DNA from: a virus
Lineage: Duplodnaviria; Heunggongvirae; Uroviricota; Caudoviricetes
Virus record (IMG/VR): IMGVR_UViG_2778261182_000006
Length of the DNA stretch: 4,533 nt
Strand: one strand, 5' to 3'
In this document: piece by piece, positions 411 through 4,533 of the stretch
Layout: every line of letters starts with the position of its first letter
Numbering within the stretch: the stretch's first letter is position 1
The notes under the pieces: model-generated
Seen by the model: only the letters and a program-made list of their open reading frames with translations
Told to the model about the DNA's origin: nothing
Database searches by the model: none
Program-made: the position numbers and the translations under genes

Positions 411-1358
411 TTACCCCCTGAAGCCCGGCGGAATTTCGGTATCCGGTTCAGAAATGTGATTCACGCAACGCTGTACAGGCGAACGCCCCAGACGAATAAC
501 CAGCTCATCCCATTTTTCGCGAAGCTTTGACGGGCTCATGACGTTTTTTACCCAGAATGGATCCCGCTGTACCCGACCAAACATTTCGCAAATTTGTCTG
601 TGAGTTCTGCCATCCAGCATCCGCATTGTGCGCACATCATTGGCCCATGCAGTCCAGTTTGGTTCTTTCGGTCGCATGATTTCGCCATCATCGCTGGCAG
701 CCTGCTCGTAAAGACTCACGATTCGTCCCCAGATCCACTGCGCACACGCTAAATCTTCCTGGCTACCCCACTGGCGTTTTTTCGCACTGAACACAACCGC
801 GTCAGGGTGTCGGGTTAAAAAATCCTGTTCAGCCGTCTGCGGGTCCGGTTGCGAAGCGTCCGGACAAGAAGATCTTTTATCTGACGGATCAGGTTTTAAT
901 ACTGACGGATCGGGGCCAACCATCGCCCCCCTATCCGGCTGTTTTTTATCAATGGTTGATCCATCAAAATTTGAGGGGCCAACCGTTGAGAGGTCAATAT
1001 TTGACGGGTCATTTTTTACCGGGTTAATTTTTCTTTTCGGTTTATATGCCTCACGCGCCGCCGCTGCTGCTGCTTCGAGTTTTTCCACATTAAGACGGTA
1101 GATATTGCTTTCATTACGCCCACCGACCTTACGTTCCTCCTTCGTCAGCCAGCCGTTCTTTTCCAGTTCCGCTATCGCAGCTTTAACCGTTGATTCACTC
1201 TTTGCCCCAATCTGACGACGAATGGTCTCCACTGCAGGCCATGACACACCTTCGTCATTGCTGTAATCTGCAAGGCGAGCCATTACTGCCACCCTGGATA
1301 AGATCATGCCGGTGAAGGCACACCCTTCCCAGACAAGACCATGAAGCTTGCTGCTCAT
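411..1358 (-). CDS. Phage replication initiation protein: N-terminal DNA-binding (wHTH-like) region, low-complexity Pro/Asp/Ser linker, DnaT-like C-terminal domain
   Basis: 315-aa ORF from the track; GGAG about 7 nt upstream of the ATG (revcomp of 1365-1368). The C-terminus ...HISEPDTEIPPGFRG matches, by my recollection, the C-terminus of E. coli primosomal protein DnaT (...VSEPDSQIPPGFRG). The N-terminal region (AVETIRRQIGAKSESTVKAAIAELEKNGWL) looks like a winged-helix DNA-binding segment. It lies downstream of the cro-like and cII-like genes, as O/ydaU-type replication genes do. The linker-encoding DNA contains iteron-like repeats, as in lambda O/ori. Confidence 0.8.
   Translation of the reverse strand: MSSKLHGLVWEGCAFTGMILSRVAVMARLADYSNDEGVSWPAVETIRRQIGAKSESTVKAAIAELEKNGWLTKEERKVGGRNESNIYRLNVEKLEAAAAAAREAYKPKRKINPVKNDPSNIDLSTVGPSNFDGSTIDKKQPDRGAMVGPDPSVLKPDPSDKRSSCPDASQPDPQTAEQDFLTRHPDAVVFSAKKRQWGSQEDLACAQWIWGRIVSLYEQAASDDGEIMRPKEPNWTAWANDVRTMRMLDGRTHRQICEMFGRVQRDPFWVKNVMSPSKLREKWDELVIRLGRSPVQRCVNHISEPDTEIPPGFRG
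878..1050. repeat. Iteron-like repeats and short palindromes followed by an AT-rich stretch inside the rep gene; putative phage replication origin
   Basis: Seen directly: CTGACGGATC at 881-890 and 902-911 (21 bp apart) and TTGACGGGTC at 1001-1010; GGGGCCAACC at 912-921 and 975-984; palindromes TTGATccATCAA (956-967) and GTCAAtatTTGAC (993-1005); AT-rich 1011-1050. The region encodes the repetitive linker (PSNIDLST / PSNFDGST). The ori assignment is by analogy to lambda, where ori lies within the O gene linker. Confidence 0.4.
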
Positions 1359-1381
1359 AAAAAACTCCGAACACCGTGCTT

Positions 1382-1807
1382 TTAGTGCATCACCACGGCA
1401 TTTCCCGCCGGACCACCACGATTCATCTGGTTGAAACCAGCGATCGCCACTGCGACAAAATCATCAGCGTCTCTCACCAGTCGTTCCCGCGTCGCCACCA
1501 GCTCCCGAAAATAGGCTGAACTGTGACTGCGCATTCGGGCCACCAGCAGAGGTGGCATTGCTTTTTCGATCGCTGGTAACAGTGCCTGAATTTTTTTAAC
1601 CGCATCAGGAGTGTCTTTCTCTACCCAGCGGAAAATTTTCTGAGTATTGCGAGCCAGGGCTTCCGGATAGCTGTCGTCATACAGTTCCGGGAATGTCATA
1701 CCCAGCTCAAAATAAGCCCGGGTTATTTCAGCTGCCGGAACTTTTTCACCGTCCGGATGCGCCCAGGCACTCATCGCCATGCGGATGTGTTCATGCTTGA
1801 TTTTCAT
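1382..1807 (-). CDS. ydaT: YdaT-like protein (CII-analogue regulator of Rac-type prophages; historically annotated as toxin YdaT)
   Basis: 141-aa ORF from the track beginning MKIKHEHIRMAMSAWAHPDGEKVP, which matches my recollection of E. coli YdaT in length (about 140 aa) and N-terminus. It lies immediately downstream of the cro-like gene, overlapping it by 17 nt (1791-1807). Confidence 0.75.
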   Translation of the reverse strand: MKIKHEHIRMAMSAWAHPDGEKVPAAEITRAYFELGMTFPELYDDSYPEALARNTQKIFRWVEKDTPDAVKKIQALLPAIEKAMPPLLVARMRSHSSAYFRELVATRERLVRDADDFVAVAIAGFNQMNRGGPAGNAVVMH

Positions 1808-2063
1808 GAATCAACTCCGGTGCATTTGATGTGTTAACCTTACATCCAACAGGTAAACCGTCGGTTGGATTAGGATAAATATCAGGGCGAATTTCATGCG
1901 GGGTAACTTCCCACTTCATTAGCTGGCATAACGGAATTACCTGCTTTGGGGGAACGCCAAAGCTAAACCATTGCCAAACAGTCTGTTGAGCGACCCCCAT
2001 ATAACGACCTATTTCAGCTTGAGTGTATTTCTGCCTAATTTTTTCGCGAGTGCTATCTAGCAT
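1791..2063 (-). CDS. ydaS: Cro-like HTH regulator, YdaS family
   Basis: 90-aa ORF with an HTH (YTQAEIGRYMGVAQQTVWQW) and a YdaS-type C-terminal segment (PPKQVIPLCQLMKWEVTPHEIRPD). AGGAGG (revcomp of 2069-2074) lies 5 nt upstream of the ATG. It is divergent from the repressor-like gene at 2173. Confidence 0.8.
   Translation of the reverse strand: MLDSTREKIRQKYTQAEIGRYMGVAQQTVWQWFSFGVPPKQVIPLCQLMKWEVTPHEIRPDIYPNPTDGLPVGCKVNTSNAPELIHENQA
1797..1814. promoter_or_regulatory. Perfect inverted repeat TTGATT-N6-AATCAA centred on the ydaT start codon; candidate binding site for the CII-like YdaT or another HTH regulator
   Basis: Seen directly: TTGATT (1797-1802), spacer ttcatg, AATCAA (1809-1814). 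Its position at the cro-like/cII-like junction mirrors where lambda CII acts at pRE. Function is inferred. Confidence 0.35.
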
Positions 2064-2172
2064 TTTGCCCTCCTCTAAAAAACTATAAGCAAAGCCTACA
2101 ATAAAAAATTGTACACGATCAACAGTTTTTTATTGTGATGCTTTTAACAGTATTTACCTGTAAAATTGAATA
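2064..2172. promoter_or_regulatory. Divergent promoter/operator region (OR-like) between the cro-like and repressor-like genes
   Basis: 109-bp AT-rich intergenic region between divergent start codons. Contains the inverted repeat TACAAT-aaaaa-ATTGTA (2097-2113) and AACAGTTTTTTATTGT (2121-2136), a 15/16 match to a half-site of the palindrome at 3136-3174. A -10-like TAAAAT (2161-2166) ends 7 nt before the ATG at 2173, suggesting a leaderless repressor mRNA. Minus-strand -10 candidates are TATAGT (revcomp of 2082-2087) and TACAAT (revcomp of 2108-2113); their -35 elements are poor. Confidence 0.6.
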
Positions 2173-2574
2173 ATGATGAACGCCCTAGAAGTATCTATGT
2201 ACAGAATCAGCAAGCTTCTTCAGGAAACTGGATGGAGCCAGGCTGAGCTTGCCCGTAGAATTGGTGTGACACAACAAACTGTTCAACAATGGGCCAGCGG
2301 TAAGGCCACCCCTAAAGCCTCAAGTTTGGATAAACTGGTTGAGGTTACAGGGCATCCATTGCATTGGTTTTTATTGCCTCCTGAAGAAGGGGAGCAAATT
2401 TTCACCCCTGACACGATGAAAATTGGTCCTCGCCAACGCGAACTGCTCCAGGCTTTTAGTGCGTTTCCTGAGGAAGACCAAGAAAAAATGCTTCAAGAAA
2501 TCAAAGACAAGAAAAAATCAATGGAAGAAACCATTGCCCGGTGGTTGGCGGCGCAAAAAAGCCGCCGGGCGTAA
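2173..2574 (+). CDS. paaR2: XRE-family HTH transcriptional regulator, CI/DicA-like; regulator of the three-component TA operon and likely prophage immunity repressor
   Basis: 133-aa ORF with an HTH (SQAELARRIGVTQQTVQQWASG) and a C-terminal region typical of the dimerisation part of DicA-type repressors. No Shine-Dalgarno upstream. First gene of an operon with the antitoxin and ParE genes. Confidence 0.8.
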   Translation: MMNALEVSMYRISKLLQETGWSQAELARRIGVTQQTVQQWASGKATPKASSLDKLVEVTGHPLHWFLLPPEEGEQIFTPDTMKIGPRQRELLQAFSAFPEEDQEKMLQEIKDKKKSMEETIARWLAAQKSRRA

Positions 2575-2604
2575 CCACTACTGTACAAAAAGAGGAGTTA
2601 TGCC

Positions 2605-2796
2605 ATGAGTACAGCCCTTTCTCCGATAGTTTCAGAATTCGAAACTACCGAACAAGAAAACAGTTACAACGAATGGCTGCGCGCTAAAGTGGCGTCAAGC
2701 CTTGCAGACCCTCGCCCCGCAATTCCACATGACGAGGTAATGGCTGAAATGGAAAATCTTATTGCTCAAATTGCTGTAACTAACAGGAGCGAGTAA
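2605..2796 (+). CDS. paaA2: Small antitoxin of a ParE-family toxin (PaaA2-like)
   Basis: 63-aa acidic ORF (MSTALSPIVSEFETTEQENSYNEWLRAKVASSLADPRPAIPHDEVMAEMENLIAQ...) with GAGGAG about 7 nt upstream of the ATG. Its stop overlaps the toxin start (TAATG at 2794-2798). Size and position match the PaaA2 antitoxin as I recall it. Confidence 0.8.
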   Translation: MSTALSPIVSEFETTEQENSYNEWLRAKVASSLADPRPAIPHDEVMAEMENLIAQIAVTNRSE

Positions 2797-3083
2797 TGTT
2801 ACCCATTTTATGGCTACCATCTGCTCGCGATGATTTGCGTCAGATCGTAGCCTATATTGCTAAGGAAAATATTCCTGCAGCACGCAGACTAAAAATACGT
2901 ATTGAAACGTCTGTTTTAGCCCTCTCTGAGCACCCATATCTATATCCGCCAAGTGATCGAGTATCCGGTTTGCGGGAAATTGTGGTTCACCCTAATTATA
3001 TCGTTTTGTACCGAGTAGCAACTTCAAGCATTGAAATTGCAAATATTGTGCATGCCCGCCGACAATTTCCCTTCTCTATCTGA
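2796..3083 (+). CDS. parE2: Type II toxin, RelE/ParE superfamily (ParE-like)
   Basis: 95-aa ORF (MLPILWLPSARDDLRQIVAYIAKENIPAARRLKIRIE...HPYLYPPSDRVSGLREIVVHPNYIVLYRV...) of typical ParE size and pattern. AGGAG (2785-2789) precedes it, with translational coupling to the antitoxin; a terminator follows. Confidence 0.85.
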   Translation: MLPILWLPSARDDLRQIVAYIAKENIPAARRLKIRIETSVLALSEHPYLYPPSDRVSGLREIVVHPNYIVLYRVATSSIEIANIVHARRQFPFSI

Positions 3084-3099
3084 GCCGAGCAATTCTCAT

Positions 3100-3125
3100 A
3101 CTCCCTCATTCGAGGGAGTTTTTTT
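3100..3125 (+). terminator. Rho-independent terminator ending the regulator-antitoxin-toxin operon
   Basis: Seen directly: stem ACTCCCTC (3100-3107), loop ATTC (3108-3111), stem GAGGGAGT (3112-3119), overlapping a run of 7 T (3119-3125), 17 nt after the parE stop. Confidence 0.75.
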
Positions 3126-3135
3126 GCTCAAAGCC

Positions 3136-3179
3136 ACAATTAAAAACTGTTGACACAAAACAGTTTTTAATTGTAGATT
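3136..3179 (+). promoter_or_regulatory. pL/dicBp-like early promoter embedded in a 39-bp perfect palindromic operator
   Basis: Seen directly: ACAATTAAAAACTGTT (3136-3151) and its exact reverse complement AACAGTTTTTAATTGT (3159-3174), separated by GACACAA. Consensus -35 TTGACA at 3150-3155; -10 candidate TAGATT at 3174-3179 (18-bp spacer). The half-site recurs at 2121-2136 in the OR-like region. Confidence 0.55.
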
Positions 3180-3362
3180 GTTTTCACCGCCCCACCCCGT
3201 CCCACAGAACGCAGGGCAATACTTCGAGTTACCAGGCAGTGGTCAGGGGTTAAGTAGCCAGCCCGAGGCGTAAGAACATGACGGCAGGGTTCAACTTTAA
3301 TAACTATGCAGCAGGTTTTTGTTCCGCTACCCCGGCGTTAAGGGGAAACAGAGGATTTCTCA

Positions 3363-3719
3363 GTGGGCGAAGTCAAACATCAGAATGGAAGGCATCCCGG
3401 GATCGGCAAAGAAGCAGCAATGGCGCTTTATATTGACATCAGCGCCATTGCCGGACAGGTAAGAGTTATTAGAGCGGTAACTAAGCAGTATGCGCCTTTA
3501 CTTCAGAAAGTCTCTGGTGAGTGCACCGAAGATATTGTCAACGATTTCGTCATCGAACTGCGAGGACTCATCTTCAGTTACAAGGTGACCACAATTTTTG
3601 CAGATGGCTCCCGCGAAACTGTCAGAGCCCTGCGGCTTAAAGGATGTGTCAAAGACTTCGCCACCACATTCTGGGCAAGAAAACTTGATTGTATTCATAA
3701 CCAATTTCCTCTCGAGTAA
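3363..3719 (+). CDS. Alternative hypothetical protein (118 aa, GTG start), mutually exclusive with the antisense zinc-ribbon ORF
   Basis: Plus-strand ORF in the same direction as the early operon; GAGGA (3351-3355) lies 7 nt upstream of the GTG. It uses only AGA/AGG arginine codons in its unique 5' part and has no recognisable motif. Its openness over 3498-3698 may be an antisense in-register artefact of GNC-rich coding on the other strand. Confidence 0.3.
   Translation: MGEVKHQNGRHPGIGKEAAMALYIDISAIAGQVRVIRAVTKQYAPLLQKVSGECTEDIVNDFVIELRGLIFSYKVTTIFADGSRETVRALRLKGCVKDFATTFWARKLDCIHNQFPLE
3498..3698 (-). CDS. Small 4-Cys zinc-ribbon protein (about 66 aa), unknown function
   Basis: Minus-strand ORF (track 3498-3704, TTG start; more likely ATG at 3696-3698) with C-P-E-C ... 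C-K-N-C spaced about 21 residues apart, a classic zinc-ribbon signature, plus an acidic C-terminus. GAGAGG (revcomp of 3708-3713) lies about 9 nt upstream of the ATG. It conflicts with the plus-strand ORF 3363-3719; at most one is real. Confidence 0.45.
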   Translation of the reverse strand: MNTIKFSCPECGGEVFDTSFKPQGSDSFAGAICKNCGHLVTEDESSQFDDEIVDNIFGALTRDFLK

Positions 3720-3790
3720 CAGACCCCTCAGAGGATACCACCTCGCCTGACGTGGTTAAAAGCAGGCAACGCTAACCACAAGGAGCCGAC

Positions 3791-4006
3791 ATGCAGAAAC
3801 GAGAACCCGTCATCATCGCGCCAGACTATACCGATGATGAAATTTACGAATGGATGTGCGGGAAGATACGCGCCATTAATGACCTGAAGCAGGCTGCTGA
3901 CTATAAAGAGCGCCTCTCTAAAGAACTGGCGTCAGCGGAGCAGGATATTACCACTCTGGCAAAAAGCGCGGCTTTAAACGTTTCGCGAGTGACTGAAAAC
4001 CACTGA
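3791..4006 (+). CDS. Hypothetical small protein (71 aa) of the early rightward operon
   Basis: Strong SD AAGGAG (3780-3785) 5 nt before the ATG. Plausible, non-repetitive protein (MQKREPVIIAPDYTDDEIYEWMCGKIRAINDLKQAADYKERLSKELASAEQDITTLAK...). Occupies the position of the small ydfA/B/C-type genes upstream of DicF in Qin-type prophages. Confidence 0.6.
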   Translation: MQKREPVIIAPDYTDDEIYEWMCGKIRAINDLKQAADYKERLSKELASAEQDITTLAKSAALNVSRVTENH

Positions 4007-4009
4007 CTG

Positions 4010-4396
4010 ATGAGGTTGATGATGGAATTTAAAGATTTACCAATGCCATTCCAGGAAATGGCAGCGAATATAGTTCGTTCCCAACTGGCGACTCTTGACC
4101 TGAGTACCGTAGAAAAAGAAACCATCGATAATATATCCGGTAACGTGCGTCGCGCCTTTATCGGGTTGTACGAAGAGAAGCAACTCTCTGATAACCAGGA
4201 TTTACATGAAAAATACTTCCTGGAATTAATGGACATCATTGATAAGGGATTTGGCTTGTTAATGAAACAGAAAGGGATTCGAATGAACCCCCTTGAAAAT
4301 TACTTCGTAACAAGAAGCATTAATTCCTGTGATTTAAAGCATCCCGCCACAGACGGGAGTGTTACAGTTAGCCATAAGATTTCGATTAATCATTAA
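4010..4396 (+). CDS. Hypothetical protein (128 aa by track; true start may be ATG 4019 or 4022)
   Basis: ORF begins 3 nt after the upstream stop. GAGG (4012-4015) would serve an ATG at 4022 (6-nt spacing). No recognisable motif. Followed by the DicF-like element. Confidence 0.6.
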   Translation: MRLMMEFKDLPMPFQEMAANIVRSQLATLDLSTVEKETIDNISGNVRRAFIGLYEEKQLSDNQDLHEKYFLELMDIIDKGFGLLMKQKGIRMNPLENYFVTRSINSCDLKHPATDGSVTVSHKISINH

Positions 4397-4464
4397 AATC
4401 AATAACTATTTCAATAAGTGATGCCATCTCGTTGCATTTTGTTGAATTCATCTTACGTAATACT

Positions 4465-4526
4465 TCATGTTGATTAGCACCTTTGGCGGCATCAGTTTTC
4501 ATTGCTGGCTGATGTCCGCCCTTTTT
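4465..4526 (+). ncRNA. dicF: DicF-like small RNA with its intrinsic terminator (5' end is processing-defined and approximate)
   Basis: The segment ...CCTTTGGCGGCATCAGTTTTCATTGCTGGCTGATGTCCGCCCTTTTTAAAGTGA resembles my recollection of E. coli DicF (...GTTTGGCGGTATCAGTTTTACTCCGTGACTGCTCTGCCGCCCTTTTT). Shared blocks are TTTGGCGG-ATCAGTTTT and CCGCCCTTTTT. It lies at the end of an early operon under an operator-controlled promoter, as DicF does in the dicB operon. Confidence 0.5.
4485..4526 (+). terminator. Rho-independent terminator (3' hairpin of the DicF-like RNA)
   Basis: Seen directly: stem GGCGGCATCAG (4485-4495) pairs with CTGATGtCCGCC (4509-4520, one bulged T), 13-nt loop, then a run of 5 T (4522-4526). 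Confidence 0.6.
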
Positions 4527-4533
4527 AAAGTGA

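Follow-up and report, generated by a model that had tools for sequence, protein, structure and literature searches.

An allelic variant of the prophage small RNA and terminator dicF in a minority of Escherichia coli

DicF is a textbook prophage small RNA that blocks cell division, and it is usually treated as one sequence. The last nucleotides of a 4,533-nt stretch of viral DNA (Caudoviricetes; IMG/VR record IMGVR_UViG_2778261182_000006; the whole stretch is called the window hereafter) raise the question of whether an element that looks like DicF is a DicF, and whether it would act on the same host messages. An earlier note, made from the sequence alone, had read positions 4465-4526 as a DicF-family RNA with a divergent 5' region and possibly an altered set of targets. 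The features that it described were all found in place: a GGCGG block, a hairpin and the end of the window 7 nt past the terminator, which closes with a T5 run. The analysis below indicates that the element is an uncharacterised allelic variant of a known prophage sRNA/terminator, present in a minority of E. coli.

A permissive cmscan of both strands of the window returned a single Rfam match, DicF (RF00039) at 4474-4521, which spanned model positions 1-52 of 52 with a score of 38.5 bits (E 5.5e-6). The curated Rfam gathering score for this family is 48 bits, and by that criterion the element is therefore not a called DicF family member. The covariance-model check suggested earlier gave a significant, full-length match with a score under the threshold; the resemblance to DicF is well beyond chance. 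Copies of the K-12 type scored 75-77 bits (K-12 itself, 76.7), and since all other locus alleles tested scored 28-44 bits, only the K-12 type passes the threshold. The element has a terminator hairpin built on a GGCGG/CCGCC base and followed by a U-run, and the proposed family identity is borne out by the full-length match together with the same place in the same operon. The element is homologous to dicF, mainly on the basis of its position.

The window is the immunity/early region of a Qin/P22-immC-like lambdoid prophage, and its gene order is that of K-12, dicA-ydfA-ydfB-ydfC-dicF-dicB. Genes for an HTH_36 replication-organiser, a YdaT-like and a YdaS/Cro-like protein are on the minus strand. 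The DicA/CI-like repressor is presumed to control a promoter located in a palindrome whose perfect 16-bp arms, ACAATTAAAAACTGTT...AACAGTTTTTAATTGT, enclose the TTGACA -35 box. This palindrome is likely to be the operator/promoter of the early-left operon and would then be the analogue of dicBp; no sequence similarity to K-12 dicBp was found. A promoter scan of the plus strand showed no promoter-like site after 3179, and no terminator-like site was listed on that strand between 3180 and the hairpin. Between the repressor gene and the early-left promoter lies an inserted PaaA2/ParE-type toxin-antitoxin pair (2605-3083), after which comes a terminator of its own at 3100-3119. Further along, an ORF on the plus strand (3363-3719) matches phrog_21318 (E 1.9e-66), and an ORF on the minus strand (3498-3704) that matches an ECs_2282-type zinc-ribbon family overlaps it fully and antiparallel; annotations differ in calling one, the other or both.

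From the stop codon of the 128-aa ORF that precedes the element to the end of the U-run is a distance of 130 nt. In every copy examined, this ORF occurs together with the junction described below and with this dicF allele; an exact-protein look-up of its product gave no match, gene callers starting it later, and the same look-up succeeded for the ydfC-like product. The position recalls the Hfq sRNAs of the CpxQ, SdhX and SroC class, which derive from 3' UTRs by RNase E processing (PMC9438474). From the sequence, the RNA of the window would likewise lie in the 3' UTR of an ORF (4010-4396) and share its terminator, and here too a promoter-like site of its own was not seen on the plus strand after 3179.

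Because the window stops short of it, a dicB-like gene downstream had been set aside earlier as not assessable. That gap is closed by L190 (GCA_012789555.1, a 74.7-kb contig; L numbers designate related loci), which is 100% identical to window positions 791-4533 and extends beyond them. After the U-run it reads AAAGTGAATTTTGTGATGCGGTGAATGCGG..., nearly base for base the K-12 dicB leader. This leader (GTGAATTTTGTGATGCGGTG ... CACCGCATCACAAAATTCAT, then the dicB ATG) forms a long inverted repeat, the 5' arm of which begins with the AAAGTGA that closes the window and the 3' arm of which ends just before the start codon. The ATG is 183 nt after the U-run, and a DUF1482 gene and a YdfE-like exonuclease gene come next. 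All fuller copies of the exact junction have dicB downstream, as do all related loci of E. coli that share the hairpin, at ~170-180 nt; K-12 dicF likewise stands after ydfC-like genes, ~175-185 nt before dicB. The 3' end of the 72-nt DicF of K-12 is set by RNase III, which processes the transcript downstream of the terminator. The whole window equals contig NLPG01000070.1 (GCA_002230665.1; 4,533 bp), which breaks 7 nt past the terminator, probably because the dicB leader is repeated in several prophages per genome. Separately, the dicB/kilR leader 3' of the hairpin gave sub-threshold matches to STnc100 (RF02076; 31-42 bits against a gathering score of 47) in every locus examined, for example L005 3433-3642 and L010 1246-1422.

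Table 1. Positions of the dicF-like element, its parts and its neighbours in the window
Feature	Position	Strand	Basis or remark
DicA/CI-like HTH repressor gene	2173-2574	+	Pfam HTH_3, Phage_CI_repr
39-bp palindrome around TTGACA-18-TAGATT	3136-3179	+	consensus match only; candidate operator/promoter
ydfC-like gene, phrog_1744	3791-4006	+	same rightward operon; named ydfC in related records
128-aa ORF, phrog_6937	4010-4396	+	hairpin RNA in its 3' UTR
Remnant (C-terminal ~25 codons) of a WP_000202161-like hypothetical gene	4387-4461	-	homology to L002 3007-3081
Chimeric 38-aa ORF, ATG in hairpin loop	4502-4386	-	ORF scan; in all junction copies
Junction	4459-4462		comparison with L002, L001 and L007
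Single-stranded 5' tail CAUGUUGAUUAGCACCUUU	4466-4484	+	allele table, cmscan alignment, folds
Terminator hairpin	4485-4520	+	fold; inside the Rfam DicF match 4474-4521
Hairpin 5' arm GGCGGCAUCAGUU	4485-4497	+	sequence
Hairpin loop, 9 nt, UUCAUUGCU	4498-4506	+	sequence
Hairpin 3' arm: GGCUGAUG, bulged U, CCGCC	4507-4514, 4515, 4516-4520	+	
U5 tract of intrinsic terminator	4522-4526	+	sequence
AAAGTGA, first bases of conserved dicB leader	4527-4533	+	L190 continuation

The hairpin reads as an imperfect inverted repeat that opens with GGCGGCATCAGTTTT (4485-4499) and is followed by a C and the U5 tract (Table 1). Its predicted RNA energy is -20.1 kcal/mol (z = -3.4), which none of 200 dinucleotide shuffles matched. 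Hairpins with a U-tail commonly serve as Hfq-binding modules, and the U5 tract would be the 3' end of the RNA and its likely Hfq-binding tail. Upstream of the hairpin, the 5' tail, with TGTTGATTAGCACC at 4468-4481, was unpaired or weakly paired in the folds.

Alignment with K-12 DicF, which has the same Rho-independent terminator architecture, showed what has been kept. The common part is UUU-GGCGG-(Y)AUCAGUUU ... CCGCCCUUUUU and everything downstream, the stem base GGCGG.AUCAGUUU...CCGCCCUUUUU being retained, and the CCGCCCUUUUU tail is the same in K-12 DicF and in every allele at the dicF locus. The 5' segment does differ, as the earlier note had proposed: the K-12 seed UUUCUGGUGACGUUU is replaced by the 5' tail of the window, where AGCACC, with CAUGUUGAUU before it, stands for the K-12 5' seed UUUCUGGUGACG. 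The view that the divergence is limited to this segment, however, was wrong. Loop and distal 3' arm read UUUUCAUUGCUGGCUGAUGU in the window and UUUUACUCCGUGACUGCUCUG in K-12, with CAUUGCUGGCUGAUGU for K-12 ACUCCGUGACUGCUCUG across the loop and 3' arm and, in the alignment, UCAUUGCUGGCUGAUGU for UACUCCGUGACUGCUCUG; the helix is continuous in the window, whereas that of K-12 has an internal loop and folds at -15.9 kcal/mol. The CUCCG of the K-12 loop, the anti-Shine-Dalgarno sequence for ftsZ, is missing. The likeness of the hairpin to DicF therefore holds for the stem base but not for the loop and 3' arm, through which K-12 DicF pairs with ftsZ and pykA. According to Balasubramanian et al. 2016 (PMC5069750), K-12 DicF is an Hfq-dependent regulator whose 3' region pairs with the ribosome-binding sites of ftsZ and pykA and whose 5' end pairs with xylR. 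Since 5' tail, loop and 3' arm have all been replaced, both functional pairing regions of K-12 are altered, and not the 5' region alone.

A copy from a Shiga toxin-producing strain (L009, strain 2014C-4423), prophage-borne and 5' of dicB like that of the window, has the K-12 hairpin and differs from K-12 solely at G39. Match statistics for the O157:H7 records sampled were those of this copy, and within the O157:H7 records listed the window RNA was matched at 82.1% at best (positions 18-72), so that the window allele is not one of those O157:H7 copies.

To assess host pairing we calculated ViennaRNA duplex energies in sliding windows, together with the opening energies of both RNAs, for four K-12 targets: ftsZ, xylR, pykA and manX. 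Plain full-length RNAduplex was set aside as uninformative; it gave long looped duplexes with z near 0 even for known K-12 targets. The accessibility-aware calculation recovered the K-12 DicF sites: ftsZ at -28..-7 (hybrid -22.7 kcal/mol), xylR at +9..+21 with the tail alone (-13.7 kcal/mol, equalled by 0 of 150 shuffles), the pykA ribosome-binding site and manX at +35..+53. For the window RNA it predicted no pairing at the ftsZ ribosome-binding site. The best ftsZ site of the short form was at -94..-83 (hybrid -7.4 kcal/mol, total -3.9), and that of the long form was at +31..+38 (total -3.9 kcal/mol), off the ribosome-binding site. On xylR the window tail reached -3.7 kcal/mol, and 71% of shuffles did as well; its 19-nt and 45-nt forms were no better than shuffles on either ftsZ or xylR. 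These models make it unlikely that the window allele silences ftsZ in the K-12 way.

On pykA the 5' tail alone was no better than shuffles and the short form did not pair. Segment 4456-4476, by comparison, was predicted to pair with pykA -18..+1 at -14.9 kcal/mol total, equalled by 1 of 100 shuffles, with several targets and forms having been tried. This is the site that K-12 DicF uses; the pairing applies just to an RNA that starts upstream of 4456, and the segment is partly derived from the junction. The pairing is a hypothesis, by which the pykA ribosome-binding site may serve as a lead for the long RNA form. A pairing of the window tail with the manX 5' UTR (-10.4 kcal/mol) was dropped, as 11% of shuffles equalled it. 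The altered target set suggested earlier is a prediction only; in silico, the K-12 sites are lost.

We also considered a partner for the loop. The loop has no complement elsewhere in the window. In related prophages it is complementary to a GCCAGCAAUGGC mini-hairpin, but this candidate was rejected because the site is equally common with K-12-type alleles (39 of 72 against 22 of 37). The mini-hairpin is itself conserved: it has a 4-bp stem and a GCAA loop, lies ~50 nt upstream of the exonuclease gene and downstream of the DUF1482/ydfD gene (L005 4019-4050, L002 ~4175, L003 ~9059), and is compensated in L001 (GUCA...UGAC).

A conserved stretch of ~330 nt separates the last ydf gene from dicF in K-12 and in most window-type loci. 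The K-12 leader holds an RNase III site that yields a 190-nt precursor, from which RNase E makes the 53-nt form (bioRxiv 10.1101/2023.04.14.536235), and DicF biogenesis there combines termination with cleavage by these two enzymes (bioRxiv 10.1101/2023.04.14.536235; PMC9438474). The leader is not present in the window, and a search of the window for dicF leader motifs found none. Comparison with related loci placed a junction here (Table 1), to the left of which the sequence is homologous to the region past the 128-aa ORF and to the right of which the dicF-variant locus begins; relative to L002-type loci, ~470 bp are gone, comprising most of a minus-strand gene and the conserved dicF leader. 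Without the processing leader, the sRNA could be made inefficiently.

No complete E. coli genome contained this junction. The same junction was found in L030, L039/L064, L065-L067, L186, L187 and L189-L191; with the identical RNA it occurs in four contigs from metagenomes, two from IMG/VR and several NCBI/ENA/Logan assemblies. The copies are 98.5-100% identical and their upstream neighbours differ, a recurrence which indicates that the junction circulates and did not arise as an error of assembly. In L031/L059 (IMG/VR), an independent deletion joins the 5' coding part of a ydfC-like gene to a point 4 nt before the same hairpin, suggesting that the 5' edge of the hairpin is a module boundary.

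The allele is uncommon but not isolated. Whereas the K-12 hairpin type was present, nearly invariant, in 4,011 of the 5,426 complete genomes of E. coli (with as many as 7 places in a genome), the window hairpin type was found in ~93 of the 5,426 at >=80% coverage, with a best identity of 95.8%, and in 41 IMG/VR contigs. Bar a U3/U4 length difference, the window hairpin was recovered from 51 loci. AGCACC is a linker allele specific to the window type, and CAUGUUGAUU was present in 49 of 51 variant-A copies, the other two being the L031/L059 junction. Near-identity within an allele class may reflect recent spread only. When GTDB species representatives were scanned with a pattern for non-K-12 hairpins, the Rac type alone was found, the window allele being absent, and the phage GenBank collection contained no close match to the RNA region.

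A loop-agnostic pattern, constrained at the stem base, U-run and leader alone, retrieved at least 120 IMG/VR loci. Among those listed, ~68% were of the K-12 type, ~20% were of a Rac type upstream of kilR, ~7% had the window loop core AUUGCUGG (the window hairpin type itself was in only 2 of the 120), and several had rarer hairpins. The Rac-type hairpin shares its stem base, U-run and downstream leader with the window but precedes kilR instead of dicB, differs in its loop (UUUUUUCUUGAAGUUCGG) and 5' tail, and is also under the Rfam cut-off (41.4 and 35.6 bits). Each of the 24 distinct locus hairpins folds as a terminator, at -13.6 to -24.1 kcal/mol, and compensatory changes occur directly above the GGCGG base, at stem positions 6-7; these comparisons used per-allele folds, as the MAFFT allele alignment puts the K-12 3' arm one column off. 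Tails and hairpins have been reassorted: a K-12 tail is joined to a different hairpin in L074, a window-type tail to another hairpin in L112 and L152, and a Rac tail to a window-like hairpin in L008 and L175. Reportedly, Faubladier and Bouche had noted in 1994 that dicF-related sequences are widespread in prophages; relatives of dicF have thus long been known and the general phenomenon is not new. No description of non-K-12 dicF alleles was found in the literature searched.

Two side observations arose from these loci. The octamer CAUUGCUG occurs both in the window-type loop and in the single-stranded 5' tail of the Rac type (L017, L010), and L008 has near-copies in both places, CAUUGCUG in the tail and AAUUGCUGG in the loop; the octamer may be a seed common to both types or a leftover of recombination. 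In some phages, genes for isrK and C4 antisense RNA (P1/P7-type immunity RNAs) lie less than ~300 nt after a dicF-like hairpin (L136 894-1359 and L113 2972-3433), and both RNAs score above their Rfam cut-offs.

Together, these observations appear to favour a dicF allele that is both a terminator closing the ydf-like block and the source of a trimmed Hfq-type sRNA without the K-12 ftsZ/xylR pairing, a reading that we hold to be reasonably probable. The repressor-controlled promoter near 3150-3179 would drive transcripts across the ydfC-like ORF and the 128-aa ORF, some of which would stop at 4526; the hairpin would thereby limit dicB expression, and the allele probably still ends transcription ahead of that gene. 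The terminated 3' UTR would then be trimmed, presumably by RNase E alone, to release a small RNA of ~45-70 nt, as with K-12 DicF. As it has neither the CUCCG loop nor the GGUGACGUUU seed, such an RNA would not be expected to silence ftsZ or xylR through the pairings used in K-12.

The element might instead be a terminator or attenuator only, which gates read-through into dicB and marks the boundary of a recombination module while having no role in trans. This is possible, if doubtful. What stays constant among alleles, namely the GGCGG/CCGCC base, the U-run and the leader that follows, is what termination requires, the loops and 5' tails are highly variable and have been exchanged, as expected if the loop is not constrained, and several independent deletion or recombination junctions stop just 5' of the hairpin; the loss of the leader holding the RNase III site and the want of significant pairing to K-12 targets also fit. 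Yet the same architecture in K-12 DicF belongs to a proven Hfq-dependent regulator (PMC5069750), a hairpin with a U-tail is a typical Hfq-binding module, and a pure terminator would need neither the loop core AUUGCUGG, which is kept across otherwise different alleles, nor the recurrence of CAUUGCUG in the Rac-type tail. At the opposite pole, the allele could be functionally equivalent to DicF, still repressing ftsZ and the metabolic targets through alternative pairings. Its position beside dicB, another division inhibitor, the retained CCGCC base of the 3' arm, able to pair with GGCG, and the predicted contact of the long form with the pykA ribosome-binding site speak for this; the missing CUCCG loop, a best ftsZ energy of -3.9 kcal/mol off the ribosome-binding site against the -22.7 kcal/mol hybrid of K-12 at that site, and 5' tails that did no better than shuffles on ftsZ and xylR make it improbable. 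Least credible of all is that the functional unit is the 38-aa ORF on the minus strand. Although it begins with ATG and recurs in all junction copies, its C-terminus is the leftover of a truncated gene, its N-terminus is antisense to the terminator hairpin, and no Shine-Dalgarno-like sequence was seen at the usual distance before the ATG; the ORF is probably spurious.

To return to the allele as terminator and trimmed sRNA, a broader and more tentative proposal, which we think rather unlikely, is that the dicF position is a polymorphic 'seed cassette' in which a constant terminator base and dicB/kil leader are combined with interchangeable, recombining tails and loops, the window allele being a retargeted version without the RNase III leader. 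If this were true, different prophages would aim an Hfq sRNA at different host messages, and the window allele would have given up ftsZ control and gained other targets, possibly the pykA ribosome-binding site by way of sequence derived from the junction.

The window element represents an allele that circulates in nature and is found in ~2% of complete E. coli genomes. Both of the pairing regions of DicF that experiments have defined are replaced in it, and annotations that call DicF at the Rfam gathering threshold would overlook it. Should it act as a terminator only, it illustrates the extent to which the dicF hairpin can diverge and still serve its purpose before dicB. If the RNA is expressed, strains that carry it would have a different regulatory link from prophage to host. 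The allele offers a specific case in which to test whether dicF variants are directed at new host genes.
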